Shown here: piece after piece, positions 4,538-27,429 of the stretch
How positions within the stretch are numbered: the first letter of the stretch is position 1
Layout: each line of letters starts with the position of its first letter
Assembly: GCF_016127575.1 (NCBI RefSeq)
Contig: NZ_CP066019.1
Span: forward strand, 2,040,001-2,072,000
Direction: 5' to 3'
DNA length: 32,000 nucleotides
Origin: Cupriavidus necator
GTDB lineage: Bacteria; Pseudomonadota; Gammaproteobacteria; Burkholderiales; Burkholderiaceae
The notes under the pieces: generated by a model
What the model saw: the letters and a program-made list of their open reading frames with translations, nothing else
The model's database searches: none
Told to the model about the DNA's origin: nothing
Translations under genes and position numbers: made by a program

Positions 4538-5842
4538 TCAGGCGATTGAGCCTGCGGGCTGCGCCAGCGGCGCGGTCTCTTCCTTCTCCCCGCCGCCGCC
4601 CGCCTGCCCCAGGTCCATACCGGTAGTCTCGGGCAGCAGCACCGCGGCGACCACTACCATCGCGTAGCCGACTCCCGCCACGATGGCGATCGCGATCGGC
4701 AGCGAGGTGTGCCCCGTACTCAGCCACCCCACCGACAGCGGGAACAGCGAACCGATCACCCGGCCGGCGTTATACGAAACGCCATACCCCGTTGCCCGGA
4801 TATCGTTGGGATAAGACTCGGAGATGGTCGCGCCGATGCCCGCGAACACGCCCTGCATCAGGATGCCGAGCGGGAAGCCAAGGAACAGCATCGACGTATT
4901 CGACACCGGGATCACCATATAGACCAGCGCGGCCACGAACGCCCCGACCGCAAAGGCGATGTAGGTCAGCCGCCGGCCCCAGCGGTCGGTGGCGTAGGCG
5001 CCCGCCACGTAGCCGATCAGTGAGCCGATAATGGTGACCGCCAGGTAAGAACTGGTGCCGAACACCGACAGGCCGCGCTCGGTCTTGAGGAAGGTCGGCA
5101 ACCACGTGGCGATGGCGTAGTACGCGCCCAGCATCCCGCCCGACAGCAGGCTGCACAACAAGGTCTTGGACAGCAGCGGCCCACGGAACAGCCGGCCCAG
5201 GCCTGCCAGCGCCGCCCCCTGCCGGCCGGCCGCCCGGCTCTTCAGGAAGATTTCCGGCTCTTCCAGGTTGCGGCGCAGGTAGACCACCACCAGCGCCGGC
5301 AGGATGCCGAGGAAGAAGCAGACCCGCCACGCCGTCTCCGCCGGCAGCACGCTGAATGCGATCGCGTACACGATGGCCGCCGCGCCCCAGCCGAAGGAAT
5401 AGCTGCTGGCGGTAAAGCCCGAGTATTTGCCGCGATGGACCGGATTGCGGATCATCTCCGTCACCAGCACCATGCACAGCGACGACTCCCCGCCAAACCC
5501 CAGGCCCTGGATCATGCGGAACAGCATCAGCTGCTCCGGCGACTGCGCCAGCCCGCACAGGAAGCAGGCCCCCGCGAACACCACGATGGTCCAGCGCAGC
5601 ACCCGCACGCGCCCGTAGCGGTCGGCCAGGATGCCGGCCCCGATCGCACCAACCAGCGACGACACCAGCGTCCAGGTGACGATGGCGCCCGCTGTCGACT
5701 TGCTCATGCCCCACTGCCCCAGCAGCGTGGAGATAAGGAACGAATAGATCATGAAGTCGAAGACATCGACCGCATGCCCAAGGAACGCGCCATAGAAGCC
5801 CTTGCGCTCCATGCACGACAAATCACGGAACCAGTCGAACAT
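4538..5842 (-). CDS. MFS transporter (metabolite:H+ symporter type), substrate unknown
   Basis: 434 aa, about 12 hydrophobic segments, MFS loop motif ADRYGRVRVL, GGGAGGG RBS. Lies 33 nt downstream of the amidase gene. Confidence 0.85.
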   Translation of the reverse strand: MFDWFRDLSCMERKGFYGAFLGHAVDVFDFMIYSFLISTLLGQWGMSKSTAGAIVTWTLVSSLVGAIGAGILADRYGRVRVLRWTIVVFAGACFLCGLAQSPEQLMLFRMIQGLGFGGESSLCMVLVTEMIRNPVHRGKYSGFTASSYSFGWGAAAIVYAIAFSVLPAETAWRVCFFLGILPALVVVYLRRNLEEPEIFLKSRAAGRQGAALAGLGRLFRGPLLSKTLLCSLLSGGMLGAYYAIATWLPTFLKTERGLSVFGTSSYLAVTIIGSLIGYVAGAYATDRWGRRLTYIAFAVGAFVAALVYMVIPVSNTSMLFLGFPLGILMQGVFAGIGATISESYPNDIRATGYGVSYNAGRVIGSLFPLSVGWLSTGHTSLPIAIAIVAGVGYAMVVVAAVLLPETTGMDLGQAGGGGEKEETAPLAQPAGSIA

Positions 5843-5875
5843 GATCCCTCCCTGTGGTGTGTGTGGTGTTGTGGC

Positions 5876-7372
5876 TTAGTTGTTGTGATCCGCCGGCAGG
5901 ACAGACGGCCGCGGCGGGGGCCGGAACGCGTAGCCCGCGCCTTCCAGCAGGCTGGCAAAGCGCAGCGCGGTGAGATCCCGGTAGCGGCCGGCGACGATCT
6001 GCACGCCGACCGGCAGGCTACTGGTGCCCGGCCCGATCGGCGCCACCGCTGAAGGCAGCCCGCACAGCCCGGAATGGCCGGCCCAGAACAATTGCGTGGT
6101 CATCGGCTGCGCGCGGCCGTTGACGGTGAGGCTGCGCTGCCAGGGCTGGCCGGCCTCGTCCAGCGCGAAGGCCGTGGTGGCTGCGGCCGGGCACAGCAGC
6201 ACGTCATAGGTGGAGAAGAAGCGCCGCCACGCGGTGGCAAAGCGTTCGCGGGCCACCTGCAGGCGCAGCCAGTCGCGATGCCTCAGGGTCGCGCCGGTGT
6301 ACTGGAGGGTGGCGTAGGCATGGTCGTCCGCGGCGGCTGTGGCGGTGCGGTTCAACGCGTCGGCATAGGCCGCATCGTCCATGTGCACCGCGGTGGTTGC
6401 GCGCAGCAGCGTCACGTAGACGTGCCACAGTTCGGCCGCATCGAAATCCGGCCGCACATGCCAGTCCACGCGCGCGCCCTGCCCGGCCAGCCAGTAGCCC
6501 AGTTTTTCGATCTGCGCGGCAACCTCGCCGTCGGATTCAGCCTGCGCATGGGTGGGCAACACCGCGACGCGGAAGTCGGCCAGCCGTCGGTGCGGACACT
6601 CTGGCAGATCAAGGCGGTAGGGCAGCGCCTCGTCGCCGTGCGGGCCGGCAATGGCGCGCAACACCGGTTCCAGGTCGCGCGCGCTGCGGGCCAAGGGGCC
6701 GGCGACATTGATGTCCTGTTCGCCGAAGCGCGCCGGACCCACCCCGTGGCCTGCCAGCGGCACCAGGCCATGGCTGGGCTTGAGCGAGAAGATGCCGCAG
6801 TAGTGGGCCGGATTGCGCAGCGAGGAGCCGATATCGGAGCCCACATCGAAATATGACAGGCCGGCGCACACCGCCGCCGCGCTGCCGCCGGACGAGCCGC
6901 CCGGCGTGCGCGACGGATCGTGCGGATTGCGGGTGGTGCCGTAGATGGCGTTGTAGCTTTGCCAGTCACGCAGGCCGAGCGGAACGTTGGTCTTGCCGAG
7001 CAGGACGGCGCCGGCATCGCGCAGGCGCTGCACTACCGCGGCGTCGTGCTGGGCCGCACGGCCCTGCATGGCCGGATTGCCGCAAGTGGTCGGCCAGCCG
7101 GCGACGTCGAACGACTCCTTGACCGAGAACGGCACGCCGTCGAGTACCCCGCGCGCTTGCCCTGCCCGGCGCCTTCGGTCGCTTTCCAGCGCCGCGGCGC
7201 GGGCGGCATCGAAATCTGACAGCACCAGCGCATTGATGATGCCGTGCCAGTCGTGCCACGCGGCTTCGCAGCCATCCACCAGTTCTACCGCGGAGACTTC
7301 GCCGGCGGCGAGCCGCTGTGCCACCTCCCACAACGGCGGAAAACCGCCGGGAGCCCGGTCGGACAGGTTCAC
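5876..7372 (-). CDS. Amidase-signature family amidase
   Basis: 498 aa. GGSSGGSAAAV signature and upstream FSVKESFDVAG (catalytic Lys region). GTG start preceded by AAGGAG. Confidence 0.9.
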   Translation of the reverse strand: MNLSDRAPGGFPPLWEVAQRLAAGEVSAVELVDGCEAAWHDWHGIINALVLSDFDAARAAALESDRRRRAGQARGVLDGVPFSVKESFDVAGWPTTCGNPAMQGRAAQHDAAVVQRLRDAGAVLLGKTNVPLGLRDWQSYNAIYGTTRNPHDPSRTPGGSSGGSAAAVCAGLSYFDVGSDIGSSLRNPAHYCGIFSLKPSHGLVPLAGHGVGPARFGEQDINVAGPLARSARDLEPVLRAIAGPHGDEALPYRLDLPECPHRRLADFRVAVLPTHAQAESDGEVAAQIEKLGYWLAGQGARVDWHVRPDFDAAELWHVYVTLLRATTAVHMDDAAYADALNRTATAAADDHAYATLQYTGATLRHRDWLRLQVARERFATAWRRFFSTYDVLLCPAAATTAFALDEAGQPWQRSLTVNGRAQPMTTQLFWAGHSGLCGLPSAVAPIGPGTSSLPVGVQIVAGRYRDLTALRFASLLEGAGYAFRPPPRPSVLPADHNN

Positions 7373-7452: not shown

Positions 7453-7471
7453 GTTGGTATACTATATTCCG
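7453..7471. promoter_or_regulatory. Operator/promoter element GTTGGTATACTATATTCCG upstream of the amidase-MFS unit
   Basis: Exact reverse complement of 14661-14679. Contains the 11-mer GTATACTATAT (7457-7467) also present at 12524-12534. That 11-mer lies 85-95 nt upstream of the GTG start. Confidence 0.55.
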
Positions 7472-7938: not shown

Positions 7939-8646
7939 TCAGGCCGCCTCTGCCCTGCCCTGCCCGTCCACCGGCAAGTCTGCCGCCTTGGCGGCACTGT
8001 AGACATGGCGCGCGGCCAGCAAGGCGGCAAGGTCGGCATCCCCGGCGATGACTGCCTGCAGGATCTGGGCGTGTTCATCCCAGTTCTGACGGGCGCGAAC
8101 CACGTTGGCCGGGCCGAACAGCACCGCGGTGCGCTCGCGCAGCGAACGCATCATTTCCTGCAGCACGCTGTTGGCGGCTATGGTGCCGAGCACCTCATGG
8201 AAGCGGGTATTGAGGGCGAGCAACTCATCCGCGCGGCCCTGGGCGGCGGCATCCATGCCCTGGCGCAGCACGCTCTCCAGCTCAGCAACCAGCGCCGGGT
8301 CGCGGCGCTGCGCGGCGAGCTTGGCGTTGAGCCCTTCCAGCGTCGCGCGCACCTCCACCATCTCGCGCGCGATCACTGGCGACAGGCTGGCAACGGTTGC
8401 GCCGCGGCGCGGCTCGATCACCACCAGGCCCTCGCTGGCCAGCGCGCGCAGCGCCTCGCGCACCGGGATGCGCGACACGCCCAGTTCGGCCGACAGCTTG
8501 TTTTCCACCAGCCGTTCACCTGGCGCGTACTTCCCGTTCAGGATGCCTTCACGCAGCTTGTCGGTGACAAGGGCGAACAGCGGCGAGTGGCTGGCACCGA
8601 GGCTCAGCGGCTCGGCGGGCGCGGCAGGAGATGGAGTGAGAGACAT
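7939..8646 (-). CDS. GntR-family transcriptional regulator, FadR/FCD subfamily
   Basis: 235 aa. wHTH KLSAELGVSRIPVREALRALASEGLVV followed by an all-helical C-terminal domain. Confidence 0.9.
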   Translation of the reverse strand: MSLTPSPAAPAEPLSLGASHSPLFALVTDKLREGILNGKYAPGERLVENKLSAELGVSRIPVREALRALASEGLVVIEPRRGATVASLSPVIAREMVEVRATLEGLNAKLAAQRRDPALVAELESVLRQGMDAAAQGRADELLALNTRFHEVLGTIAANSVLQEMMRSLRERTAVLFGPANVVRARQNWDEHAQILQAVIAGDADLAALLAARHVYSAAKAADLPVDGQGRAEAA

Positions 8647-8717: not shown

Positions 8718-9716
8718 TTAACAATGCTGGAAGGTGAAGCTGTCCGCATAAATGTGATCCGTACTGGCGCCGCTCGCCAGGAAAGCGGTGCGCGCGTCTC
8801 GGATCATATTGGGAGAACCGCACAAATAGATGGCGTGCTCGCTCAGGTCACCCAGGTCAGCCAGCGCCGCATCGTGCACGTAACCGCGCCGTCCTTGCCA
8901 TCCTGCGCCGGCACGGGACAGCACCGGTACGTACTGGAAGTCATACAGCCGCTCGCCCCAGGCGGGGATATCGGAGTGCAGGTACAGGTCTTCCGGCTTC
9001 CGCATGCCCCAGTAGAGCGACACCGGTGGGCAGTCGGGATCGTCCATCAGCGATTCGAGGATGGCCTTGATCGGCGCCAGCCCGGTGCCGGTGGCCACCA
9101 TCAGCAGTGGCCGGTAATCCATGGCGCGGTAGAAGAAGCTACCGAGCGGCAGTTCGACGTCAACGGCGTCGCCCGCTTTCATCTGCGGCAGGATGCCGTC
9201 GGTGAAGGCGCCGCCCGGGATGCGCCGCACATGCAGGTCGACCCGTCCGTCGCGCGGCACCGATGCCATCGAGAAGCTGCGCGCGCGCCCATCCTCGCTC
9301 AATAGCTTCAGGTACTGGCCGGGACGATAGTCGAGCGCACCAGCGTCCGGCACTTCCAGTTCGATATGCAAAACGTCAGCCGACAACGCGCGCACGGCCT
9401 GCACCAGCGCCCGATAACGCGCCGGCTCGGCGCAGGCCTCGTCCTCGCGCGCCGTGCTGATGACCAGGTCGCCCAGCGGCTGCGCCTGGCAGGCCAGCGC
9501 GTAGCCGGCGGCGGCCTCGTCCGGGGCCAGACCGAACGGTTCCTCGTCATACCGCACCTGCCCGGCCAGCAGCCGGATACGGCAGGTGCCGCAGCCGCCC
9601 AGCTGGCAGTCGCGCGGCAAGGCGATACTGGCGCGCCCGGCGGCCTGCAGCAGGGTCTCGCCGCGTTCGACAAAAAAGACCTGCTGCGTTTCGGCGATCT
9701 GGATGCGGTACGACAT
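8718..9716 (-). CDS. [2Fe-2S] ferredoxin-FAD/NAD(P)H oxidoreductase (N-terminal plant-type ferredoxin fused to an FNR module; MmoC/DmpP/BenC/AscD-type architecture)
   Basis: 332 aa from MSYRIQ (GGAGG RBS). CQLGGCGTCRIRL...LACQ cluster motif, RSFSMAS FAD motif, MVATGTGLAPI NAD motif. The listed ORF 8718..10031 is a 5' over-extension across the GlcG gene. Confidence 0.85.
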   Translation of the reverse strand: MSYRIQIAETQQVFFVERGETLLQAAGRASIALPRDCQLGGCGTCRIRLLAGQVRYDEEPFGLAPDEAAAGYALACQAQPLGDLVISTAREDEACAEPARYRALVQAVRALSADVLHIELEVPDAGALDYRPGQYLKLLSEDGRARSFSMASVPRDGRVDLHVRRIPGGAFTDGILPQMKAGDAVDVELPLGSFFYRAMDYRPLLMVATGTGLAPIKAILESLMDDPDCPPVSLYWGMRKPEDLYLHSDIPAWGERLYDFQYVPVLSRAGAGWQGRRGYVHDAALADLGDLSEHAIYLCGSPNMIRDARTAFLASGASTDHIYADSFTFQHC

Positions 9717-9724: not shown

Positions 9725-10204
9725 CTACTTCTTGATATCGGCCTGCACCAACACCTTGAGGTCCTGCGGCGCCAGCAGCTCGGCCAGCGCCAGCAGCGCG
9801 GCCAGCCCGGCCTGCGTGTCCTGCTCGCCATTGCCGCCGGACAGGCCGATGCCGCCGATCACCTCGTCGTTGACGACAATCGGGAAGCCGCCCACGAACG
9901 CGGCGAACTTGCCCTCGAAGCTCCACTGGATGCCGAATGCCTCGTTGCCTGGCAGTGCCGGCCCGTTGGGCGGCGTGGTGAACAGGTGCGTGGAGCGCTT
10001 GTGGCCCGCGGCCGTGAAGGCCTTGTTCCATGCGATCTGCGGCCCGGTGATGCGGGCGCCGTCCATGCGCTCGAGCGCGAGCGGATAGCCGCCCTCGTCG
10101 ACCACGCAGATCGACTCCAGCACGCCGATTTCCTCCGAGCGCCGGATCGCGGCTGCAACCATATGGCGCGCCTCGCGCAGTTCCAGCTTGATGGCTTTTT
10201 TCAT
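9725..10204 (-). CDS. GlcG/HbpS-like (DUF336) heme-binding family protein
   Basis: 159 aa from MKKAIKLELREARHMV. GGxPIVVNDEVIGGIGLSGG motif. AGGAG RBS. The listed ORF 9725..11233 is an over-extension into the ALDH gene. Confidence 0.85.
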   Translation of the reverse strand: MKKAIKLELREARHMVAAAIRRSEEIGVLESICVVDEGGYPLALERMDGARITGPQIAWNKAFTAAGHKRSTHLFTTPPNGPALPGNEAFGIQWSFEGKFAAFVGGFPIVVNDEVIGGIGLSGGNGEQDTQAGLAALLALAELLAPQDLKVLVQADIKK

Positions 10205-10233: not shown

Positions 10234-11679
10234 TCAGGCGCCGCGGTAGACCGTCTTGACCTGCGTATAGAACTCCAGGCCGGTGCGGCCCGACTCGCGG
10301 AAGGTCGAGGTGCTCGACCGCTTTACCCCGCCAAAGGGCGCGTTGACCAGGTTGCCGGTGGTGGTGCGGTTGACCTTGACCGTGCCCGCCTCGATGTCCG
10401 TGGCGAAGTGGTGGATGTAGCGCGGGTTGCTGGTGACGATGGCCGCCGCCAGGCCGTACTCGGTGTCGTTCGCCTTGGCGATGGCGTCGGCGTAGTCGGT
10501 GAAGCCCAGGATGGCGATCACCGGCCCGAAGACCTCCTCGCGCGCGATCCGCATCTGCTGGGTCACGTCGGTAAACACGGTCGGCGCCACGTAGTAGCCC
10601 TTGTCGAAGTCGCCGCCGGCAAGGCGCGCGCCGCCGCACAGCAACGTCGCCTCGGACTTGCCGATATCGATGTAACGCAGCACCGTTTCCAGCTGCTTGT
10701 GCGACGCCAGCGGCCCGAGGTCCATCCCGGCCGTCATGCCGCTGCCGACCTTGAGGGTGGCGACCTTCGCCAGCAACCGCTCTGTGTATGCCGCCTTGAC
10801 GGACTCGGCCACCAGCACGCGGCTGGTCCCGGTGCACGCCTGCCCCGACAGCGAGAAGCCGCCCTTGATGGTCAGGTCGACGGCGCGGTCGAGGTCGGCG
10901 TCTTCCATCACGATCAGCGGGTTCTTGCCGCCCAGCTCCATCTGCGTGCGCGTGGTCAGCGGCACGGCGCGGTGGATCTGCTCGCCGGCGCGCGACGAGC
11001 CGGTGAACGAGATCGCCCGCACGGCCGGCGCCTCGGTGATGGCAGCGCCGATTTCCGCCGCGCTGCCGGTGATGAAATTCAGCACGCCCTTGGGCAGGCC
11101 GGCCTTGACCAGCGCCTCGGCCAGCCGGTAGCCCGACAGCGGCGCCTCGGACGACGGCTTGAACACTACTGTGTTGCCGGTCACCAGCGCCGGGGCGATC
11201 TTGCGGGCCGGGATCGATACCGGGAAGTTCCACGGCGCGATCACGGTCACCACGCCCAGCGGCTCGCGCTGGCTGTAGACGAGTTGGTCGGGGTCGTCGT
11301 TCGGGAACACCTCGCCGGTGAAGGTCTGCCCTTCCACTGCATAGAAGCGCAGCGTCTGGGCCGAGCGCAGCACCTCGTCGCGGGCCAGCGCCAGCGCCTT
11401 GCCTTCCTCGCGGGTCAGCTCGGCGGCGATGCTATCGGCGTTGGCCTCGAGATGGTCAGCGGCACGGTTGAGGATGGCGGCGCGCTTGCCGACCGGGGTC
11501 TTTTTCCAGCCGGCGAACGCTGCCGCGGCGGCGGCGACGGCCGCCTGCGCGTCCACCGCGGCAGACGCCTGGAAGCGGCCCACAATATCGGCGGTATCAG
11601 CCGGGTTGACGTTATCGAAGGTGCGGCCCGACTGGCAGGCCGTCCATTCGCCGTCGATATGGTTGAGGAATACAGTCAT
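10234..11679 (-). CDS. NAD(P)+-dependent aldehyde dehydrogenase (2,5-dioxovalerate/KGSADH-like subgroup)
   Basis: 481 aa. VIAPWNFP, FTGSSRAG, ELGGKNP and catalytic-Cys region GQACTGTSR. Confidence 0.9.
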   Translation of the reverse strand: MTVFLNHIDGEWTACQSGRTFDNVNPADTADIVGRFQASAAVDAQAAVAAAAAAFAGWKKTPVGKRAAILNRAADHLEANADSIAAELTREEGKALALARDEVLRSAQTLRFYAVEGQTFTGEVFPNDDPDQLVYSQREPLGVVTVIAPWNFPVSIPARKIAPALVTGNTVVFKPSSEAPLSGYRLAEALVKAGLPKGVLNFITGSAAEIGAAITEAPAVRAISFTGSSRAGEQIHRAVPLTTRTQMELGGKNPLIVMEDADLDRAVDLTIKGGFSLSGQACTGTSRVLVAESVKAAYTERLLAKVATLKVGSGMTAGMDLGPLASHKQLETVLRYIDIGKSEATLLCGGARLAGGDFDKGYYVAPTVFTDVTQQMRIAREEVFGPVIAILGFTDYADAIAKANDTEYGLAAAIVTSNPRYIHHFATDIEAGTVKVNRTTTGNLVNAPFGGVKRSSTSTFRESGRTGLEFYTQVKTVYRGA

Positions 11680-11704: not shown

Positions 11705-12436
11705 TCAGGCCGCCATGTCGAGTTCGGGCAGCGGCAGCTCTTTCTCGACGTAGTCGTGATAGAGCGCCGTCGTGTACAGCAGCCGCATCTGCGCGCCGAT
11801 CTCGCAGATCTTCAGGCAGCGCTGCTGCAGCTCCGGCGTGTTGGCGTGCTCCAGCACGATCTGGTAGCCGCGCTCGCCGTGGATCTCGTCCGAGACGATA
11901 TGCAGGTCGAAGAATTCGACTTCCTCGTCAGTGAACTGGTACTTGTCGCGCAGCGTCGGGGTCTGCTTGCGGTAGATCGACGGCACCTGCGACTCCAGCC
12001 CGACCACCAGCCCGGCTACCGCGACGATGGGGTCTTCACGCATGGCCACGGCGTAGCACCAGCTCTGCAGGCCACGGGTGGTGGGCGACATATTGTCCGG
12101 GTCGATCACGCGCTCGCGGGTGGTGCCGCAGGCTTCGGCGAAGCGGATCAGCAGGTCGGTATGGCGGTCGCCGCCGATCTCTTCCTCATACATATTGGCG
12201 AGCAGGAAATCCTTGGCTTCGGTATAGCGGTCCGGGGTGCGGGCGTAGATGTAGCCCAGGTAATCCGCGAACGGGCCTACGTAGTGATAGTGGTTCTCGG
12301 CCCAGCGTGCGAGATGGGCGCGGGTCAGCTTGCCGCTGGCCCAGGCCACGCTGAACGGCGCCTTGTTGGCGCTCTTGCCTTTGATGGCTTCTTCGAGGGC
12401 GGCACGGAATGCTTCGCGGTTCATCAGTTCGGCCAT
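11705..12436 (-). CDS. TenA/PqqC-family, heme-oxygenase-like fold protein with a complete candidate diiron ligand set (putative HDO-type oxidase)
   Basis: 243 aa. PqqC-like WAENHYHYV. E85-x6-H92, E148, H179-x3-D183-x2-H186. AGGAG RBS. Confidence 0.85.
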   Translation of the reverse strand: MAELMNREAFRAALEEAIKGKSANKAPFSVAWASGKLTRAHLARWAENHYHYVGPFADYLGYIYARTPDRYTEAKDFLLANMYEEEIGGDRHTDLLIRFAEACGTTRERVIDPDNMSPTTRGLQSWCYAVAMREDPIVAVAGLVVGLESQVPSIYRKQTPTLRDKYQFTDEEVEFFDLHIVSDEIHGERGYQIVLEHANTPELQQRCLKICEIGAQMRLLYTTALYHDYVEKELPLPELDMAA

Positions 12437-12514: not shown

Positions 12515-12545
12515 TGCATGGTTGTATACTATATACAGCCATGCA
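12515..12545. promoter_or_regulatory. 31-bp near-perfect palindrome TGCATGGTTGTATACTATATACAGCCATGCA; operator candidate upstream of the oxidase-ALDH-GlcG-reductase unit
   Basis: 13 of 15 arm positions pair. It contains GTATACTATAT (12524-12534), 88-98 nt upstream of the start at 12436. Confidence 0.55.
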
Positions 12546-12612: not shown

Positions 12613-13545
12613 TCAGGCCGCGCGACGCTCCGCCGCGCCGGCGATGCGGGACCAGGCGAAGCCCGCCAGCGCCACGTCCTCCAGCCCTACGCCGACTGAC
12701 TTGTAGATCACGATGTCGTCGTCCCGCTGGCGCGGCGACACCTTGCCAAGGACCACCTCGCCCAGCTCGACAATCTTCTCGCGCGGAAGAGCCTGCGAAT
12801 CGGCCAGCACGATGTCGCCCGCCTCGCGCACGGACTGCGGGCGCCACTCGACCACCACGGCGGCGGCGCGGCGCAGCGCGGTGTCGTCCAGTTCACGCGT
12901 ATGCGGCAGGCTGGAGCCGATGGCGGCAACGAAAGCGCCAGGCCGGAGCGACGCGCCCGCGAACAGCGGCGTGGTCGCGCGCGACGCCGTGACGACGATA
13001 TCGGCCTCGGCCACGGCAGCATCGGGCTCCGCCAGCGTGACCGGGATGCCGCACAGCGCCGACAGCCGCACCGCCATGCCGGCATCGGCGTGCGGATCGG
13101 ACACCAGGATGCGCGCCAGCCCGAGCGTCTCGCTGAGCTGGCGCGCGTGCTGCACGCCCTGCGTGCCGGCGCCGAACAGCGCCAGCGTGCGCGAGCCGGA
13201 CCGGGCCAGCCGCTGCGCCGCGAGCGTGGTGCAGGCAGCCGTGCGCAGGCGCGTGATGGCGCCAGCGTCGAACGAAGCGAGCGGACGGCCGTCGTCGGTC
13301 GAGAAGATCAGGATGACAAAGGAGAACTGGCCGTTGATGGTGGTGTAGACCTTGGCGCCCGCCACGCCCTGCTGCGGGATCACCGCACCCAGCGTGGACA
13401 GCTTGACGCCGCCCGCCTCGGTGCGAATGCGCTCCTGCATCGCGGCGTCGCCGCGACCGAAGCTGGAAAAAGCGGCTTCCATGACTTGCCGGGCATCGTC
13501 CGGGCTGACGTGGGCATCGATCATCGCGTCTGTAATGTGCTGCAT
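12613..13545 (-). CDS. Ornithine cyclodeaminase / mu-crystallin family NAD(P)-dependent enzyme (cyclodeaminase or ketimine/imine reductase)
   Basis: 310 aa from MQHITDAMID (GGAG RBS). ITRLRTAA and LFGAGTQG Rossmann motif, YKSVGVGLEDV near the C-terminus. The listed ORF 12613..14124 is an over-extension. Confidence 0.85.
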   Translation of the reverse strand: MQHITDAMIDAHVSPDDARQVMEAAFSSFGRGDAAMQERIRTEAGGVKLSTLGAVIPQQGVAGAKVYTTINGQFSFVILIFSTDDGRPLASFDAGAITRLRTAACTTLAAQRLARSGSRTLALFGAGTQGVQHARQLSETLGLARILVSDPHADAGMAVRLSALCGIPVTLAEPDAAVAEADIVVTASRATTPLFAGASLRPGAFVAAIGSSLPHTRELDDTALRRAAAVVVEWRPQSVREAGDIVLADSQALPREKIVELGEVVLGKVSPRQRDDDIVIYKSVGVGLEDVALAGFAWSRIAGAAERRAA

Positions 13546-13604: not shown

Positions 13605-14405
13605 TCACGAAAAGGCAGTGCGGCCGAGCACACCGAGCGCCCCGGCAGCGCAAAGACCCAGCAGCAGCCGGCGCACCGCCCCGGGCGAGACGTGCCCGCG
13701 CAACCGGTTCGAGAGCGCGAAACCCGCAAACAGGAATGGCGCAAGGGCCGCCGCCAGCACCAGCTGCGGCAAACCGAAGCGCCCCGCCAGCGCCAGCATG
13801 GAGAGCGACAGCACCGCGCCGCCGGCCAGGATGCAACCCATCGTCGCGCGCATCGGCGCCGGCGCCATGTGCTGCATGACCAGCGCGAACGGCGGCGCAC
13901 CGGCCGAGGTGATCGTTCCCATGAAGCCCGACACGGTGCCGGCGATGACCACATTGGGCGAGGTCGGCAGCAGGCGCCAGCCCAGCAGGCTCAGCGCCAC
14001 GGCGGCGAGTATCGACACTGAGAACAGCACCCCCAGCGGCCCCGGCGCCAGCCACGCCATGGTCAGCACCGCTGCCGCCCCGCCAAGCGCGCGCCCGATC
14101 AGGGCGAAGCCTGCGATGCGCCACGCGATCGCCTCCCGCTCACGCAGCGCGCCCATCAAAGAGAGACAGCAGCCCATCGCCAGCAGCGGTCCCGGCACGA
14201 GGTCCGGGAAGAAGATTGCGCCCAGCGGCGCCGAAAGCATCGCGAAGCCGATCCCGCCCACGCCTTGCAGGCAAGCGCCCACCAGGATGAGCGCACCCAT
14301 CCATAGATAAGTGGAGACGGAGAGGCCTGTGGGGAGCAGGGAGTACAACGTGGCGGGCAAGGCAGAGGTCATGGCAGCAAGTCGGGACAGCAGCTTGGAG
14401 GGCAT
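13605..14405 (-). CDS. Second TauE/SafE (DUF81) family anion permease
   Basis: 266 aa, polytopic and glycine-rich, with two-fold repeat organisation like the tauE product at 3735. Start uncertain (alternative ATG 14372); no clear SD for either. Confidence 0.7.
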   Translation of the reverse strand: MPSKLLSRLAAMTSALPATLYSLLPTGLSVSTYLWMGALILVGACLQGVGGIGFAMLSAPLGAIFFPDLVPGPLLAMGCCLSLMGALREREAIAWRIAGFALIGRALGGAAAVLTMAWLAPGPLGVLFSVSILAAVALSLLGWRLLPTSPNVVIAGTVSGFMGTITSAGAPPFALVMQHMAPAPMRATMGCILAGGAVLSLSMLALAGRFGLPQLVLAAALAPFLFAGFALSNRLRGHVSPGAVRRLLLGLCAAGALGVLGRTAFS

Positions 14406-14742: not shown

Positions 14743-16281
14743 ATGTCACAACAAGTCGTGATCGGTGCCGCGCACTGGATCTATCTGTCAGGGGTAGCAG
14801 TCATCGTGCTGACGATGATCCTGCGCGCCAATGTTGTCGTGCCGTCGATCGTTGGCACCGCCCTGGTCGTGTTTGCGCTTACCGGCAGCCCGGTTTCGGC
14901 GCTGGGCGGGGTGTTTTCCGCGAGCCTGGTTGCCGCCAAGGAGCTGTTCAATATCTTCCTTGTGATCGCGTTCATGACGGCGCTGCTCAATGCGCTCAAA
15001 ACGCTGCGCTCCGACATCCGCATGGTCGAGCCCTTCCGCGTGGTGATGAAGAACGGGCATTCGGCGTTCTTTATCCTGGCGGGCATCACTTACGTCATCT
15101 CGCTGTTCTTCTGGCCAACCCCGGCCGTGCCGCTGGTCTCCGCGATCCTGCTGCCGGCCGCTATCGCGGCGGGGCTGCCGCCGCTGGCGGGCGCGATGGC
15201 CATCGCCATCGCCGGCCAGGGCATGGCGCTGTCATCGGACTATGTGATCGGCGTCGCGCCCGGCATCAGCGCCAAGGCGGCCGGCGCGGCGGTGAGCGCC
15301 GCGGTGGTGGCCGATCGCGCGCTGGCGCTGTCGATCATCACCGGCACGATTGCGCTGTGCCTGGCCTATCTGTCGATGCGCAAGCATATCGTCCCCGCCT
15401 GCGGCACCCTGCTCGACCGCTGGCAGGCGCGCGCCAGCGGCAGCGCCGAGGCGCTGGAAGGCGGCGGTACCTTCGACAAGGCCGAGATCGCCAGGGGCAC
15501 CGCCCACGCCGAGCCGCTGGCCAGCGACAGCAATATCGAGGCAAGCCTGGCGATGGTGGCCCGGCGCCGGGTGAAGTGGTCGAAATGCTTCGCGATCGTA
15601 ACGCCGATTGCTTTCCTCGCAGTGGTCGCCGTCATGGTGCTGCCCAAGCTGGGTACCGGCGTGCAGGACCTCAAGGGCGGCGATGCGGCTGCGCTGGTCG
15701 GCGGCGTCGCGGCGGTGCTGATGATGCTGGCGACGCTGGCCGCGGAAGGCCCGCGCCGCATGCTCGACGTGTGCCCGGAGCACATCACCGACGGCTTTGT
15801 CTTTGCCTTCAAGGCGATGGGCTCGGTGTTGCCGATCGCGGGCTTTTTCTTCGTCGGCGCCGGCGAAACCGCCGCGCAGATCCTGGGCCTGCCGCCGGGC
15901 AAGGCGCCGAGCCTGCTGTTCGAGCTGATCCAGGCCTACCAGCACATGATCCCGGACAACCACGTGCTGGTCGCCTTCGGGGTGCTGCTGGTCGGCATGA
16001 TCACCGGCATCGACGGCTCCGGTTTCGCAGGGCTGCCGCTGACCGGCACGCTGGCCGGCGCGCTCGGCCCGGTGGTCGGCTTCGACCCCGCGACGCTGGC
16101 CGCGGTGGGCCAGATGGGCGCGGTCTGGACCGGCGGCGGCACGCTGGTGGCGTGGTCGTCGCTGATCGCGGTGGCCGGCTTCGCCCGCGTGCCGGTGCTG
16201 GACGCGGTGCGCGCGCTGCTGATCCCGGTGCTGATCGGGCTGGCATGCTCCACCGTCGCCGCGATGGTGTTGTGGTCGTAG
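14743..16281 (+). CDS. Large polytopic permease, probably ion-transporter (IT) superfamily-like (GntP/DcuC/NhaC-type architecture), substrate unknown
   Basis: 512 aa: two hydrophobic halves of about 200 aa separated by a hydrophilic loop of about 80 aa. Related AGLPxL(A/T)G segments occur in both halves. GGGAG RBS. Confidence 0.8.
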   Translation: MSQQVVIGAAHWIYLSGVAVIVLTMILRANVVVPSIVGTALVVFALTGSPVSALGGVFSASLVAAKELFNIFLVIAFMTALLNALKTLRSDIRMVEPFRVVMKNGHSAFFILAGITYVISLFFWPTPAVPLVSAILLPAAIAAGLPPLAGAMAIAIAGQGMALSSDYVIGVAPGISAKAAGAAVSAAVVADRALALSIITGTIALCLAYLSMRKHIVPACGTLLDRWQARASGSAEALEGGGTFDKAEIARGTAHAEPLASDSNIEASLAMVARRRVKWSKCFAIVTPIAFLAVVAVMVLPKLGTGVQDLKGGDAAALVGGVAAVLMMLATLAAEGPRRMLDVCPEHITDGFVFAFKAMGSVLPIAGFFFVGAGETAAQILGLPPGKAPSLLFELIQAYQHMIPDNHVLVAFGVLLVGMITGIDGSGFAGLPLTGTLAGALGPVVGFDPATLAAVGQMGAVWTGGGTLVAWSSLIAVAGFARVPVLDAVRALLIPVLIGLACSTVAAMVLWS

Positions 16282-16363: not shown

Positions 16364-16705
16364 ATGCCGACAGTCACTTTCCACAAGCAGGGCCAGACCT
16401 TCGTCGACGAGGTCAAACCCCAGACCAACCTGGTCGTCCGCGCCGGGATCCGCCAGTTCCCCTACCCCAACCTGCGCTACGAGTGCGGCATGGGCAAGTG
16501 CTCCAAATGCGCCTGCCGCGTGATCGCCGGCGCCGAACACCTGCCGCCGCCCAACTGGAAAGAGAAAAAGCAACTCGGCGAGCGGCTCGAACAGGGCTAC
16601 CGGCTGGCCTGCCAGCTCTGGATCGAGCATGACATCGAACTGGCCCAGGACGACCTGCCCGCCCAGGCGCCTGCCATCGTGGCCACGGCCGGCGCGGATG
16701 TCTGA
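16364..16705 (+). CDS. [2Fe-2S] ferredoxin (small, about 113 aa)
   Basis: MPTVTF start with AGGA 8 nt upstream. CGMGKCSKCAC ... RLACQ. KEKK motif shared with the second ferredoxin. The listed ORF starts earlier, at 16328. Confidence 0.8.
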   Translation: MPTVTFHKQGQTFVDEVKPQTNLVVRAGIRQFPYPNLRYECGMGKCSKCACRVIAGAEHLPPPNWKEKKQLGERLEQGYRLACQLWIEHDIELAQDDLPAQAPAIVATAGADV

Positions 16706-16706: not shown

Positions 16707-17030
16707 ATGTTCGTCCTTCTCACCAGCCGCCCCGGTCAGTTCCGCACCGAGCCCACCGCGGGCATGACCGCGGTCGAGGCATACGACTACGTCTTCTATG
16801 GCAAGCGCACGGCGCGCTTTGTCATCGCGGAACTGGCCGCCGACACCAAGGTGCGGGTGATGGAAGAAACGCCGCCCGGCATCGTCAACCTGGTGTCGAC
16901 CAAGTTCCTCGACAAGTACGCCACGCTGGAAGCCGCCCGCGTCGCGCTGCGCGAGCTGGCCAGCTTCGGCAGCATGGACATCGCCCTGGTGCCCGCCCCG
17001 GTCGCCATGGCAGGCGCTCCTGACTACTAA
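16707..17030 (+). CDS. Small hypothetical protein (about 107 aa), no family recognised, wedged between two ferredoxin genes
   Basis: High GC3. ATG sits 1 nt after the ferredoxin stop. An alternative ATG at 16698 overlaps that stop by 8 nt. Confidence 0.6.
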   Translation: MFVLLTSRPGQFRTEPTAGMTAVEAYDYVFYGKRTARFVIAELAADTKVRVMEETPPGIVNLVSTKFLDKYATLEAARVALRELASFGSMDIALVPAPVAMAGAPDY

Positions 17031-17056: not shown

Positions 17057-17359
17057 ATGATCCAGATCACCTTCCTCACCAACCACGGCAAGACGGTCAG
17101 CGCGCCCGTCAACAGCAATCTGCTGCGCGTGTCGCTGCGCGAGCAGGGCGGCATCCCTTTCAAGTGCGGGGGCGGCCTGTGCGGCACCTGCAAATGCCGC
17201 ATCGAAAAGGGCCACGAGCATACAGACGCGGTCAAGCCGAAGGAAAAGAAACTGCTGACCGAGGAGGAGCTGGCGACGGGGTTCCGGCTGGCCTGCCAGA
17301 CTTTTATCGATGGGGATATCGCGGTGTCATGGCAGCCCAGGGAGACGATGCGCGGGTGA
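17057..17359 (+). CDS. [2Fe-2S] ferredoxin (100 aa), paralog of 16364..16705
   Basis: CGGGLCGTCKC ... RLACQ and KEKK motif, with the same C-x4-C-x2-C-x-C ... C spacing as the first copy. Confidence 0.85.
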   Translation: MIQITFLTNHGKTVSAPVNSNLLRVSLREQGGIPFKCGGGLCGTCKCRIEKGHEHTDAVKPKEKKLLTEEELATGFRLACQTFIDGDIAVSWQPRETMRG

Positions 17360-17445: not shown

Positions 17446-19167
17446 CTACCGCCGCCTCGCCCCCACCAGACCCGCCACCTCATCCAGCATCGCCATGTCC
17501 ACCGGCTGCGACAGGTCCAGCGCCAGCGTGTGCCGGTAGTAGGGGCTCAAGTCCAGCCCTACCCCCAGCCCCAGCACTTCCACATCCCGCAGCGCCTCAT
17601 GCCGCGCCACCACGGCCTTCAGGTGGTTGTCGAGGTAGCAGGCGTCGTTGGCCTGCCCGGTCGCGGTATCCATGGGACTGCCGTCGGACACCACCACCAG
17701 GATGCGGCGCGCCTTGCCGCTGGCGTGCAGCCGCGCGCAGGCCCACTCCACCGCCTCGCCGTCCACGCCTTCGCGGAACAGGTCGGCCTTGAGCAGTGCG
17801 GCGATGTCGGTGCGCGCGCGCCGCCAGCTTCGCTGCGCGTCCTTGAACACCATATGGCAGGTCTCGTTGAGCCGGCCAGGGTGCTGCGGGCGGCCGCGCG
17901 CGAGCCAGTCGGCGCGGGCGCGGCCGCCGTTCCAGGCGTTGGTGGTGAAGCCGAGCACCTCGGTGGCCACGCCGGCCTGGTCGAGTGCGCGCGTGAGCAT
18001 GTCGATCAGCAGCGTGAGCGGCTCGGCCTGCGCCTTCATCGAGCCGGAGCAGTCGATCAGGAAGCCGACCACGCAGTCGGCATGAGCCTTGTGCGCTTCC
18101 AGGCGGAAGAGCCGGCGCTCGGAGGGGGAGCAGACCAGCTGCGCCAGGCGGCGGCCGTCGATACGGCCGCTTTCCTCGCCGAAGGACCAGCCGTCCACGC
18201 GCGGCTGCGACAGCGCGGCGCGCAGCCGGCGCGCCAGCCGGGCGATGTTCACGCCCGCGCGCGCGATGCGTGCGTCAAGCCGCGTGCGGTACTCGTCCAG
18301 CAAGGCGCGGCGCACCAGCGTGGCGGCGCGCACTTCGCGGTCGTAGCGGGTGGTGAAGACGCGGTAGCCGTCGGTGGCGTCGGCCAGCACGCGGCTGTGG
18401 CCGCTGTCGGCCAGTGCAAAGTCTTCCGCAGGCGGTTCGTCGAAATCCAGCCACAGCGCAAACCCGGCGCGCGCAGCCGAGGCTGCGTTGTCGTCGTCTT
18501 CGCCGGCAAGCGGGGCTTCGGTACGGATCATCTGCGCCACCGCGCGCGCCAGCGCCAGTGCGTACGCGGCGTAGGCGGCCTGGTCGTGGCGTTGCGCGCG
18601 CAGGCCGGCCAGCGCGGTGCCGAGCACCGGCACGATGGCGGCGCGCGTGGCTTCGATCAGGTCTTCGGTCTCTTCCAGCACCGGCTCACCCGTCAGGCGC
18701 GACCACGACACCTGCGCCACGGTATAGAGCAGGATGCCGAGATGCCCCTCGGTCAGCCCGGAGCGATGGAAGGCCCGCGACCACGCCATGAAGCGGTGGC
18801 GCAGGTTGGCCGCCACGCCGGCCATGCCGCGCGGCAGGCGGGTCTCGCAACGCAGCTGCTCAAGCAGTTCGAAGACCAGGCGCTCGACCGCATCTGCCGG
18901 GCACAGCTGCCGATGCAGCGCGGCGTCGGAATGCGCCTGGCGCAGGGCGGCACCATCGGCCGCGCCGCGCAGGCAGGTGGCCGTGTCAGTTTCCAGGTCC
19001 GTGCGCAAGTGCGGCGCATGCTGCGGCACCGGGCGCATCGCGCGCCAGAGCTGGCCGTCGCGGAAATGCAGCGCCGCATCGCCAGTGATCGCGCGCACCG
19101 CGGCACCGGACAGCTCATCCTGCCGCTGGCGCCGGCGCAACTGCTGCGCGACCGTGGCCGCACTCAT
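17446..19167 (-). CDS. cobT: CobT-like vWA-domain protein (aerobic cobaltochelatase CobT family)
   Basis: 573 aa from MSAATVAQQL. Its ATG overlaps the cobS stop (ATGA at 19164-19167). MIDAS motif DCSGSM, and VVSDGSPMD...YLDNHLKAVV typical of CobT. The listed ORF extends to 19272. Confidence 0.8.
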   Translation of the reverse strand: MSAATVAQQLRRRQRQDELSGAAVRAITGDAALHFRDGQLWRAMRPVPQHAPHLRTDLETDTATCLRGAADGAALRQAHSDAALHRQLCPADAVERLVFELLEQLRCETRLPRGMAGVAANLRHRFMAWSRAFHRSGLTEGHLGILLYTVAQVSWSRLTGEPVLEETEDLIEATRAAIVPVLGTALAGLRAQRHDQAAYAAYALALARAVAQMIRTEAPLAGEDDDNAASAARAGFALWLDFDEPPAEDFALADSGHSRVLADATDGYRVFTTRYDREVRAATLVRRALLDEYRTRLDARIARAGVNIARLARRLRAALSQPRVDGWSFGEESGRIDGRRLAQLVCSPSERRLFRLEAHKAHADCVVGFLIDCSGSMKAQAEPLTLLIDMLTRALDQAGVATEVLGFTTNAWNGGRARADWLARGRPQHPGRLNETCHMVFKDAQRSWRRARTDIAALLKADLFREGVDGEAVEWACARLHASGKARRILVVVSDGSPMDTATGQANDACYLDNHLKAVVARHEALRDVEVLGLGVGLDLSPYYRHTLALDLSQPVDMAMLDEVAGLVGARRR

Positions 19168-20180
19168 CGCGCGGGCTCCGACTCGGAGCTGACGCCGGCG
19201 GCTTCGCCCGGCAGGTGGCCAAAGCAACGCTGGTAGTACTCGGCCACCACCGGCCGCTCGGCTTCGTCGCACTTGTTCAGGAAGGTCAGCCGGAAGGCGA
19301 GCGCGGGGTCGCGGAAGATCTGGCAGTTCTCGGCCCAGCTGATCACCGTGCGCGGCGACATCAGCGCCGACACATCGCCGGCGGCAAACCCGCGGCGCGT
19401 GAGCCCGGCCAGCGCCACCATCGCATCGGCCAGCGCGCGCCCGGCGTCGTGGTCCAGCTCCGGCACGCGCGCCAGCACGATGCCGGCCTCCTCTTCATGC
19501 GGCAGGTAGTCCAGCGTGGCGACCACGTTCCAGCGGTCGATCTGCGCGTGGTTGAGCAGCTGGGTGCCGTGGTAGAGGCCGTTGACGTTGCCCAGGCCGA
19601 CGGTATTGGAGGTCGCAAACAAACGGAAAGACGGATGCGGGCGGATCACGCGGTTCTGGTCCAGCAGCGTGAACTTGCCGTCGCGCTCCAGGATGCGCTG
19701 GATCACGAACATCACATCAGGCCGGCCTGCGTCGTATTCGTCGAAGATCAGCGCCACCGGGCGCTGCAGCGCCCACGGCACGATGCCTTCCTGGAATTCG
19801 GTGACCTGGCGCCCGTCGCGGATAACGATGGCGTCCTTGCCGACCAGGTCCAGCCGGCTGATATGCCCGTCCAGGTTGACGCGCACGCAAGGCCAGTTCA
19901 GCCGCGCGGCGACTTGCTCGATATGGGTCGACTTGCCGCTGCCGTGCAGGCCCTGCACCATCACGCGCCGGTCGCGCATGAAGCCGGACAGGATTGCCAG
20001 CGTCACCTCGGGCTGGAAGCGGTAGGCCGGATCGATCTCCGGCACGTGGTCGTCGCGCTGGCTGAAGGCCGGCACCATCAGGCCGGAATCGATGCCGAAC
20101 GCGCTGCGCACCGGAATCATCCGGTCCGGCTTGCCAAACTGGTCTTGCGTCACCTCATGCTCCTTGTTGCTTGCTGCCAT
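19164..20180 (-). CDS. cobS: CobS-like AAA+ ATPase (aerobic cobaltochelatase CobS / MoxR-related)
   Basis: 338 aa. VMVQGLHGSGKSTHIEQVAARLNWPCVRVNLDGHISRLDLVGKD closely matches the conserved CobS core. Walker B LIFDEYD. Confidence 0.88.
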   Translation of the reverse strand: MAASNKEHEVTQDQFGKPDRMIPVRSAFGIDSGLMVPAFSQRDDHVPEIDPAYRFQPEVTLAILSGFMRDRRVMVQGLHGSGKSTHIEQVAARLNWPCVRVNLDGHISRLDLVGKDAIVIRDGRQVTEFQEGIVPWALQRPVALIFDEYDAGRPDVMFVIQRILERDGKFTLLDQNRVIRPHPSFRLFATSNTVGLGNVNGLYHGTQLLNHAQIDRWNVVATLDYLPHEEEAGIVLARVPELDHDAGRALADAMVALAGLTRRGFAAGDVSALMSPRTVISWAENCQIFRDPALAFRLTFLNKCDEAERPVVAEYYQRCFGHLPGEAAGVSSESEPAR

Positions 20181-21192: not shown

Positions 21193-21393
21193 TTTTTAAG
21201 CGATCACCGGAGACAAGTCGACATGTACGGATAGGCCATCCCTCCCCGGGATTGCAAATACTGAACGACCACGGCCCCAGGCTGGCAATTACTGCCCTGC
21301 CATCTATACCGAAGAGAAGCCGTGGCGCCTGCCTTAAACGCTGTACTGGCTGCAACGCAGTACCGACAGCTAGCGCAGCACAGGAGACACAAC

Positions 21394-22830: not shown

Positions 22831-22906
22831 TGACTGACCATGACTGACGTGGCGCGCCGGTGCGGTATGCTGGCGCGCTTCGCCGTCTAGGCAACGCCCC
22901 TGCCCC

Positions 22907-24469: not shown

Positions 24470-24609
24470 GCCGGCCCGCGGCGGTGTCTGCCGCCGCTGG
24501 CCCAAGCGATTGTCCCGAACTGGCGCTACAGCGCCGCGCGCGGCTTCCCTATCCTCGAGTCATGGCCGGTTCCCCACGGACCGGCAGACAACACTCAGGA
24601 GACCAACCC

Positions 24610-25014
24610 ATGTCCAAGGACAACACCGCCGCCGGCATCGAACTGCTGCAGGCCTTCAACGACGCCTGGAACCGCCACGACATCGAGGCCCTGATGGGCT
24701 TCATGGCCGATGACTGCGCCTTCCACGGCGTGGCCGGGCCCGAGCTGCTGGGCCGCAGCTTTATCGGCCGCGACGCGGTGCGCGAAGGCTTCCAGCTGGC
24801 CTGGCAGACTTTCCCCGACGCGCAGTGGGTCGATGGCGACCACTTTGTCGTGGGCGACCGCGGCGTGAGCGAATCCACCTTCCGCGGCACCCGTGCCGAC
24901 GGCGCCCGCATCGAGGCGCGCATGGTGGACGTCTTCACCTTCCGCGACGGCAAGATCGCGGTCAAGAACGCGTACCGCAAGGATCGCCCGCCCGTCGTAG
25001 CGCCCGCAGCCTGA
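24610..25014 (+). CDS. SnoaL/NTF2-like fold protein
   Basis: 134 aa from MSKDNTAAGIELLQAFNDAWNRHDIEAL (AGGAGA RBS). The listed ORF starts at 24484. Confidence 0.7.
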   Translation: MSKDNTAAGIELLQAFNDAWNRHDIEALMGFMADDCAFHGVAGPELLGRSFIGRDAVREGFQLAWQTFPDAQWVDGDHFVVGDRGVSESTFRGTRADGARIEARMVDVFTFRDGKIAVKNAYRKDRPPVVAPAA

Positions 25015-25029
25015 CCGAGGAGACGCGCC

Positions 25030-26475: not shown

Positions 26476-26480
26476 CTGGC

Positions 26481-26512
26481 GCGTGGGCGTGCCGCCCCTG
26501 GCGCGCCCACGC
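26481..26512. terminator. Hairpin (9-bp GC-rich stem GCGTGGGCG/CGCCCACGC, 14-nt loop) between convergent oxidase and SDR genes
   Basis: Read from the sequence. No U-tract on either side. Confidence 0.3.
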
Positions 26513-26524
26513 TTCAGGCCTCGC

Positions 26525-27298: not shown

Positions 27299-27429
27299 GT
27301 GATTGTCTCCTCGGGGGGTGGGACATTGTTCACATGGCGAAGGGTTCAAGGCGTCGTCGGAATGGATGAAATCGCCGAGGCAGGTGACGGGCGCCGGACC
27401 GGCCATGGCCACCGCCGCCCCATGACAGC

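Follow-up and report, generated by a model that had tools for sequence, protein, structure and literature searches.

What does a PqqC/TenA-like protein do in a catabolic gene cluster that also encodes a reductase and two small ferredoxins? The question is raised by a 32,000-nucleotide stretch of the Cupriavidus necator genome (assembly GCF_016127575.1, contig NZ_CP066019.1, positions 2,040,001 to 2,072,000), which we call the window and whose own numbering we use. The open reading frame (ORF) at 11705-12436 on the minus strand encodes 243 residues, begins with an ATG that has GGAG upstream, and shows the codon-position GC pattern of a real gene in this window of 68% GC. A first-pass annotation had described its product as a PqqC/TenA-like protein that keeps the metal ligands of a heme-oxygenase-like diiron enzyme (HDO). 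We find that the protein is indeed a member of the HDO family, and an ortholog of neither PqqC nor CADD. It is likely the Cupriavidus ortholog of DipD, the O2-activating component of a multicomponent dipicolinate (pyridine-2,6-dicarboxylate) 3-monooxygenase, and the locus is the already known dip (dipicolinic acid) catabolic cluster. What the window adds is only an ortholog of a known system; a connection of DipD to the HDO superfamily is absent from the literature that we searched.

Fold and ligand set of the 243-residue protein

Profile HMM searches, which the first-pass annotation had proposed as a check, place the HDO in Pfam family PF14518 (Haem_oxygenas_2), labeled "iron-containing redox enzyme," at 127 bits (cutoff, 28.9). 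The match spans residues 44-217 and profile positions 2-175 of 177, and beneath it lies a weak match of 49 bits to TENA_THI-4 (PF03070; TENA/THI-4/PQQC). The best NCBIfam match is TIGR04305 (CADD subfamily), which at 95 bits stays below its cutoff of 200, and TIGR02111 (PqqC) is likewise sub-threshold, with 54 bits against a cutoff of 240. All of the motifs on which the annotation had relied are present, namely, WAENHYHYV at residues 45-53, YEEEIGGDRH at 83-92, GLESQ at 146-150, and LHIVSDEIH at 178-186. The last three contain the predicted metal ligands E85 and H92, E148, and H179, D183, and H186, respectively.

This arrangement, E-x6-H / E / H-x3-D-x2-H, had been given in that annotation as the ligand spacing of CADD, and the two are identical. 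The top matches of the HDO among PDB sequences (phmmer) are 4-aminobenzoate synthases (9pj4 and the CADD entries 1rcw and 8va9; E values of 1e-16 to 1e-18), and in the alignments with 1rcw and 8va9, residues E85, H92, E148, H179, D183, and H186 fall on CADD residues E81, H88, E142, H174, D178, and H181. When 14 representatives with 26-49% identity are aligned, only ten columns are invariant, and these include all six ligands. In a second alignment of 35 sequences with 45-91% identity, five of the six are invariant and H179 is found in at least 90% of the rows. PqqC from M. extorquens carries G, R, A, and D at the positions of H92, H179, D183, and H186, and it has no glutamate at the position of E85 either.

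An AlphaFold2 model built on the 35-sequence alignment consists entirely of helices and has a pLDDT of 92.5 and a pTM of 0.88. Its ligands lie where the first-pass annotation had expected them, in the core helices (72-87 and 92-102, 148-164, and 174-197). Superposition on known structures gave a similar picture: the top Foldseek matches in the PDB are Chlamydia trachomatis CADD (CtCADD) structures 8va9 and 1rcw, with TM scores of 0.82/0.92 and an rmsd of 1.7-1.9 Å over approximately 220 columns, followed by PqqC, UndA, HrmI, FlcD, and BesC, with a probability of 1.00 for CtCADD and for each of these. Taken together, the alignments and the model confirm a predicted heme-oxygenase-like fold with a full, invariant set of three histidines and three carboxylates on three core helices. 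The dinuclear site that these residues would form is probably Fe2, with Fe/Mn as the alternative.

Operator boxes and gene order of the dip cluster

The dip cluster was described in Alcaligenes faecalis JQ135, and its carriers include Cupriavidus necator N-1, Bordetella, and Achromobacter, with 30 gene arrangements counted (Jiang et al. 2024, NAR; PMC11472048). In that study, dipD is essential for the conversion of dipicolinic acid (DPA) to 3-hydroxydipicolinate (3HDPA), with the oxygen coming from 18O2, and the roles of other dip genes are called unclear. Transcription is controlled by DipR, a GntR/FadR-family repressor with six binding sites that have the core 5'-GWATAC-3'; it is released by dipicolinate and needs residues R63, R67, H196, and H218 (PMC11472048).

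The GntR/FCD protein encoded in the window also has R63 and R67, and its H192 and H214 are spaced 22 residues apart, as are H196 and H218 of DipR. Further, GTATAC occurs seven times in the window, compared with 0.91 expected, and none of 100 shuffles reaches seven. All seven boxes (7457, 7831, 8685, 8703, 12524, 14486, and 14670) are intergenic and lie within the cluster: one upstream of the amidase gene (7457-7462, 85 nt upstream of its start), one in the gap between the amidase and regulator genes, two upstream of the regulator gene, one upstream of the HDO gene, and two in the divergent gap between the TauE and transporter genes. The first-pass annotation had placed the HDO and the ferredoxins under the same operator, and the shared operator is real. 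The 10-mer TATAGTATAC is found exactly three times, upstream of the amidase gene, the HDO gene, and the transporter/ferredoxin unit, and with one mismatch or fewer the pattern is found four times, versus 0.04 expected. In each of seven other loci examined, Bacillales included, the HDO gene is likewise preceded by a GTATAC box, at a distance of 28-125 nt from box start to start codon.

The gene order points in the same direction. On the minus strand, the HDO gene is followed at its 3' side by genes for an aldehyde dehydrogenase (ALDH), an HbpS-like protein, a Fer2-FAD-NAD reductase, and the GntR/FCD regulator and then by an amidase gene and an MFS transporter gene (Table 1). The reductase gene is therefore the third gene downstream of the HDO gene, as previously annotated, and HDO-ALDH-HbpS-reductase is a consecutive four-gene unit on one strand. 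On the 5' side, the same strand carries an ornithine cyclodeaminase (OCD)-family gene and a TauE-family gene, and the divergent strand carries genes for a 512-residue membrane protein, ferredoxin 1 (Fdx1), a 107-residue protein, and ferredoxin 2 (Fdx2).

This four-gene unit fits dipDEFG, which leads us to equate the HDO with DipD. The mapping is supported by Bordetella bronchiseptica, a member of the same family as Alcaligenes, in which the genes for Fdx1, the small protein, Fdx2, and the OCD-family protein are packed tightly into a unit of four that matches dipJKLM. As the cluster has no other conserved oxygenase-like gene, the HDO is also identified with DipD by elimination. On gene order and elimination, we regard the identity of the HDO with DipD (ASR91160.1) as highly probable. 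The assignment of dip letters to families (dipF to the HbpS-like gene, dipG to the reductase gene, and dipJ/K/L to the ferredoxin unit) follows Mu et al. (2022, AEM). There, the product of dipF is reported to be a heme-binding protein and that of dipG a ferredoxin reductase, and dipJ/K/L are reported to encode ferredoxins; these genes are reportedly needed for hydroxylation, and DipD is said to lack significant similarity to known oxygenases.

Thus, the window resembles the A. faecalis JQ135 cluster in its GntR/FadR repressor with R63 and R67, its GTATAC boxes at several promoters, its four-gene unit led by the oxygenase gene, its separate ferredoxin unit, and the matching host range. It differs in gene order, and the Cupriavidus version adds an amidase-MFS unit with a box of its own. 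The first-pass annotation was right in considering the context catabolic, but it missed that the cluster is a published one in which dipD, DipR, and the GTATAC operator had already been characterized (PMC11472048).

Table 1. Features of the dip locus in the window, with coordinates in window numbering; fractions are loci, out of 59, in which the gene was found
Feature	Coordinates	Strand	Basis and occurrence
HDO-fold oxygenase, putative DipD ortholog (dipicolinate 3-monooxygenase catalytic component)	11705..12436	-	PF14518, CADD alignment, AlphaFold2, Foldseek
Predicted DipR operator core GTATAC in 14-nt palindrome TGCATGGTTGTATA/TATACAGCCATGCA	12524..12529		88-93 nt upstream of HDO start
ALDH resembling alpha-ketoglutarate semialdehyde / 2,5-dioxovalerate dehydrogenases; DipE position	10234..11679	-	Pfam Aldedh, 557 bits; 56/59
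HbpS-like (GlcG/PduO-C type) putative heme-binding protein; DipF position	9725..10204	-	Pfam PF03928, 109 bits; 59/59
NAD(P)H:ferredoxin-type reductase, N-terminal plant-type [2Fe-2S] domain, then FAD and NAD domains; DipG position	8718..9716	-	Pfam; 44/59
GntR/FadR-family repressor, DipR ortholog	7939..8646	-	Pfam GntR + FCD; 59/59
512-aa polytopic membrane protein, candidate dipicolinate transporter	14743..16281	+	Hydrophobic; GTATAC boxes upstream; 52/59
Plant-type [2Fe-2S] ferredoxin 1 (C-x4-C-x2-C ... C)	16364..16705	+	Pfam Fer2; 59/59
107-aa conserved Cys-less protein between ferredoxin genes; presumed accessory subunit	16707..17030	+	57/59
Plant-type [2Fe-2S] ferredoxin 2	17057..17359	+	Pfam Fer2, 55 bits; 59/59
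Ornithine cyclodeaminase / mu-crystallin family NAD(P) enzyme	12613..13545	-	Pfam OCD_Mu_crystall; ATG at 13545; 26/59
TauE/SafE (TSUP) family membrane protein	13605..14405	-	Pfam TauE; 28/59
Accessory unit: amidase (5876-7372) and MFS transporter (4538-5842)	4538..7372	-	Pfam Amidase, MFS_1; 24/59 and 23/59

Redox partners, proposed reaction, and rival roles

Scanning one genome per species, we obtained 583 relatives; locus counts refer to 59 loci with full 10-kb flanks. The regulator, the HbpS-like protein, and both ferredoxins are present in every locus, and the Cys-less 107-residue protein is absent from only two. The ALDH, membrane protein, and reductase genes are less constant, and the OCD, TauE, amidase, and MFS genes each occur in about 40-47% of loci. 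The HDO is the most conserved of these proteins, with a median identity of 91% over the 59 loci, followed by the HbpS-like protein (84%) and, at about 60%, the regulator and the reductase. Being present in all loci and second in conservation, the HbpS-like protein appears to be a tight functional or physical partner of the HDO. Its gene, which is 79% identical (tblastn) to that of a Billgrantia PF03928 protein and has PDB relatives that include PduO-C, EfgA, and NahX, is easily overlooked because longer overlapping ORFs mask it.

The reductase had been called MmoC-type. Its domain architecture bears this out, with Fer2 at residues 9-80, FAD_binding_6 at 105-196, and NAD_binding_1 at 206-309, but the protein is not an MmoC ortholog (NF045803, 163 bits versus a cutoff of 500). 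BenC is the closest NCBIfam model (195 bits), ahead of AntC (182 bits) and MmoC (163 bits), with all three below their cutoffs; judged by its sequence, the reductase is a predicted member of the BenC/AntC/MmoC architectural class. The two small [2Fe-2S] ferredoxins reported earlier are real, each with its own Fer2 match. In Achromobacter, Bradyrhizobium, and Methylocella, the Fdx1-small-Fdx2 trio lies directly 3' of the HDO gene. In 15 of the 59 loci (from Bradyrhizobium, Methylocella, Bacillales, and others; L033, L034, L036, L040, L046, L052, L066, L068, L069, L072, L074-L076, L081, and L082), no BenC/MmoC-type reductase gene was found within 10 kb of the HDO gene, and both ferredoxins are present there.

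The protein encoded between the ferredoxin genes has no Pfam or NCBIfam match. It contains no cysteine here, and no cysteine is conserved in 36 homologs, so it cannot hold an Fe-S cluster; NCBI labels its homologs "ferredoxin." An AlphaFold2 model (pLDDT, 83) is beta-rich and has no PDB fold match with an E value of <0.1. It therefore does not match the MmoB/DmpM effectors, and we dropped the idea that it is an effector of that kind.

These components suggest a scheme for the reaction. Spore-derived dipicolinate would enter the cell, probably via the 512-residue membrane protein, and lift DipR repression at the GTATAC boxes. NAD(P)H would reduce the FAD and [2Fe-2S] centers of the reductase, from which electrons may pass to the dimetal site of the HDO either directly or via the small ferredoxins; in loci that lack the reductase gene, another cellular reductase would have to feed the ferredoxins. 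The reduced metal pair would bind O2 and hydroxylate the pyridine ring at C3 with one of the two oxygen atoms, so that 3-hydroxydipicolinate and water are formed; the HbpS-like and Cys-less proteins are constant partners. Later steps toward 2-oxoglutarate might be carried out by the OCD-type or aspartate dehydrogenase (AspDH)-type reductase, the amidase or a creatininase-type hydrolase, and the ALDH, which resembles alpha-ketoglutarate semialdehyde (KGSA) dehydrogenases; the presence of OCD/AspDH-type enzymes and of amidase/creatininase-type hydrolases suggests imine reduction and amide hydrolysis after ring opening. The best NCBIfam matches of the ALDH are GucD (561 bits) and 2,5-dioxovalerate dehydrogenase (547 bits), both below cutoff. 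This fits a 1962 study on dipicolinate oxidation in Achromobacter, which names 2-oxoglutarate in its title.

The nearest structures and the database names point to other activities for the HDO itself. A self-sacrificing 4-aminobenzoate synthase acting in folate synthesis would be in keeping with the HDO's resemblance to C. trachomatis CADD (CT610) and Nitrosomonas PabS (NePabS), which are its nearest solved structures by sequence, its closest by fold, and identical to it in ligand spacing, and with TIGR04305 being its best NCBIfam match. In CADD, Tyr27 is the sacrificial residue and Lys152 the amino donor. These align with Ser29 and Gln158 of the HDO (1rcw alignment), overall identity is only about 25%, the TIGR04305 score is less than half its cutoff, and the gene belongs to a repressor-controlled catabolic operon with a transporter, an ALDH, and redox partners, all of which leaves this role with almost no credibility. 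A metal-free PqqC-type oxidase or a TenA-type thiaminase is very improbable as well. The names given to homologs, the TENA_THI-4 match, and the good fold matches to PqqC structures speak for it, and PqqC shares the fold and a similar N-terminal helix motif (WA.N.Y.Y). PqqC, however, is metal-free and lacks the ligands, as the M. extorquens sequence illustrates, whereas the six ligands are invariant among relatives of the HDO; TIGR02111 falls far short of its cutoff, and there are no pqq or thiamine genes nearby in the window.

Two further alternatives accept the dip assignment. The HDO could do more than the first hydroxylation, or something other than it, such as also opening the ring of 3-hydroxydipicolinate oxidatively: the cluster has no second conserved oxygenase, although 2-oxoglutarate can be formed only once the ring is open; the reactions listed for HDOs include multistep rearrangements and C-C cleavage (PMC13108848); and the literature leaves the roles of other dip genes unclear (PMC11472048). 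We consider this unlikely, given that dipD is credited there only with the step from DPA to 3HDPA (PMC11472048) and that a reductive and hydrolytic route, with an OCD/AspDH-type reductase and an amidase or creatininase, would open the ring without the help of another oxygenase. Alternatively, the reductase and ferredoxins could serve another purpose, either repair of the metal site in the manner of YfaE/XylT or another enzyme altogether, with the HDO drawing on general cellular reductants. In favor of such a role are the absence of the reductase gene within 10 kb in about a quarter of the loci, the description of HDO metal clusters as labile (PMC13108848), the weak matches of Fdx2 and the reductase to the YfaE model, and the presence of two ferredoxins plus a reductase-borne ferredoxin domain, which exceeds the needs of a simple chain. 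Nevertheless, it is quite unlikely: both ferredoxins are present at every locus, lie directly 3' of the HDO gene on the same strand in many genomes, and share the DipR operator with it, and downstream of the gene for a sister-clade HDO (48% identity), too, lie genes for a Rieske-type ferredoxin and an HbpS-like protein. In addition, dipG and dipJ/K/L mutants are reported to affect the hydroxylation step (Mu et al. 2022).

Several points weigh against reading the HDO as the dimetal oxygenase DipD. The equation of the two proteins draws on gene order, elimination, and the 2022 abstract, and the ligand geometry in the model is judged from superposition on CADD. The reductase gene is missing within 10 kb in 15 of the 59 loci, so the reductase cannot be the only electron source. 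In the searchable literature, we found no metal content, spectroscopy, or in vitro activity for any member of the present HDO family. Finally, a dicarboxylated pyridine ring is electron-poor, and its hydroxylation is without precedent among the HDO reaction types in a 2026 review (PMC13108848).

About a dozen HDOs have been validated, and a redox partner is named for just one of them, in the MboA/MboB system (PMC13108848). Validated members such as UndA, BesC, HrmI, SznF, FlcD/E, and AetD share with the Cupriavidus protein the seven-helix heme-oxygenase-like fold and the 3-His/3-carboxylate set, but their substrates are fatty acids or amino acids, and most serve in the biosynthesis of natural products or cofactors (PMC13108848). 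The Cupriavidus HDO would instead hydroxylate a pyridine ring in catabolism, and its cluster also encodes a reductase, two ferredoxins, and an HbpS-like protein. The remark in the first-pass annotation that an HDO with a dedicated catabolic electron chain would be unusual agrees with this biosynthesis-centered review, in which ferredoxin is not mentioned. Soluble methane monooxygenase and the phenol/toluene monooxygenases offer a functional parallel, as they too have an NAD(P)H-dependent Fer2-FNR reductase, small accessory proteins, and a carboxylate/His dimetal hydroxylase of an aromatic ring; their hydroxylase, however, is ferritin-like rather than heme-oxygenase-like, and the reductase described here is nearer to BenC than to MmoC.

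The balance of evidence tips, if only slightly, toward DipD being the first recognized HDO that acts as a multicomponent, NAD(P)H-coupled hydroxylase of an aromatic (pyridine) ring in catabolism, with two [2Fe-2S] ferredoxins, an HbpS-like heme protein, and the Cys-less 107-residue protein as constant partners, a heme-oxygenase-fold counterpart of the ferritin-like multicomponent monooxygenases whose module extends to Bacillales. Work on HDOs and work on the dip cluster seem so far to have proceeded separately: the 2026 review does not mention dipicolinate (PMC13108848), the dip study never mentions ferredoxin, reductase, PqqC, or pyrroloquinoline (PMC11472048), and a literature search on HDO, ferredoxin, and catabolism returned nothing specific. 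If DipD is a dimetal HDO, the known chemistry of the family would come to include ring hydroxylation, and its physiology a catabolic role served by a dedicated electron chain; relative to the review, DipD would add a catabolic member, ring hydroxylation, and a genetically defined electron-transfer chain (PMC13108848). As a stable, highly conserved model, it could help to clarify how the metal site of HDOs is reduced and kept assembled. Because DPA accounts for 5-15% of the dry weight of spores and forms a large pool of carbon in the environment (PMC11472048), the enzyme initiating its degradation is relevant to carbon cycling and to methods that count spores by their DPA.

Distribution and neighboring genes

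The best 80 of the 583 relatives are 88-100% identical to the HDO. The closest are from Cupriavidus (100% in Cupriavidus sp. NPDC089707 and 98-99% in C. necator), and the other genera among these 80 include Paraburkholderia, Pandoraea, Achromobacter, Bordetella, Bradyrhizobium, and Methylocella, with identity of about 90% across Alpha- and Betaproteobacteria. An exhaustive representative search shows one tight orthologous group, after which identity drops to 49% or less. With a profile search, members of the group were also found in Bacillales, at 65-79% identity. Public names of the homologs are inconsistent and mostly wrong. Many JGI entries read "pyrroloquinoline-quinone synthase," some NCBI entries read "TenA family transcriptional regulator," and others read "aldehyde dehydrogenase," a name apparently transferred from the adjacent gene (misnamed examples include P0049, P0095, and P0360). 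Thousands of homologs carrying such names could be renamed.

Two dip-like clusters are found in Bacillales, one in a Bacillaceae genome (L081, 6400-16600) and one of the Aneurinibacillus type (L082, 6800-20700), with HDOs 68-79% identical to the Cupriavidus protein. They contain ALDH, HbpS-like, and GntR/FCD genes, two Fer2 genes, AspDH-family and Creatininase-family genes, a ChrA pair, and a transporter gene without family assignment, and GTATAC is present in their promoter gaps. No spore former has been reported to degrade DPA (PMC11472048); a DipR-controlled module in Bacillales, if true, would mean that spore formers reuse the dipicolinate that they themselves produce. A sister clade of the HDO (about 48% identical, 227-228 residues, and abundant in metagenomes) is found in the gene order FMN_dh, HDO, Rieske ferredoxin, HbpS-like (L083, 8927-11446). 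From this pairing with a Rieske ferredoxin and an HbpS-like protein, the module of HDO, ferredoxin, and HbpS seems to be older than dipicolinate specificity.

Among the remaining genes of the cluster, the 512-residue membrane protein has no Pfam, NCBIfam, or PDB-sequence match, and a homolog in a Bacillaceae locus is 52% identical; it is a candidate dipicolinate transporter of an undescribed family. The OCD-family enzyme is probably an imine reductase. An AspDH-family gene replaces it in Methylocella, Billgrantia, and Bacillales loci, such that one or the other is found in 30 of the 59 loci. Aspartate-semialdehyde, ectoine, and opine pathways, which the combination of OCD/AspDH and ALDH had brought to mind, were superseded by the dip assignment. 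A ChrA pair lies within the cluster in Bacillales and Billgrantia, and TauE or ChrA is present in 30 of the 59 loci. Desulfonation of an organosulfonate to an aldehyde and sulfite, an idea suggested by TauE/ChrA, was rejected because the DipR/GTATAC match identifies dipicolinate and because TauE/ChrA is limited to those 30 loci. The amidase-signature enzyme matches NCBIfam PRK06170 at 732 bits, and other taxa carry a Creatininase-family or GGT-family gene in place of the amidase-MFS unit.

Adjoining the cluster at 17446-20180 on the minus strand are genes for a CobT-like VWA protein (608 residues) and a CobS-like AAA+ ATPase (338 residues; TIGR01650, 529 bits, just under the cutoff). We rejected this pair as part of the cluster, as it flanks the cluster only in some Cupriavidus loci. 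An IclR regulator gene lies next to it, and there are no cobalamin genes nearby. The region at 21322-30291, outside the cluster and unrelated to it, encodes an amino-acid permease, a MocR-type GntR-aminotransferase regulator, a SnoaL-like protein, a DAO-family FAD oxidoreductase, an SDR, an AraC regulator, and the [2Fe-2S] and FAD subunits of a molybdenum hydroxylase.

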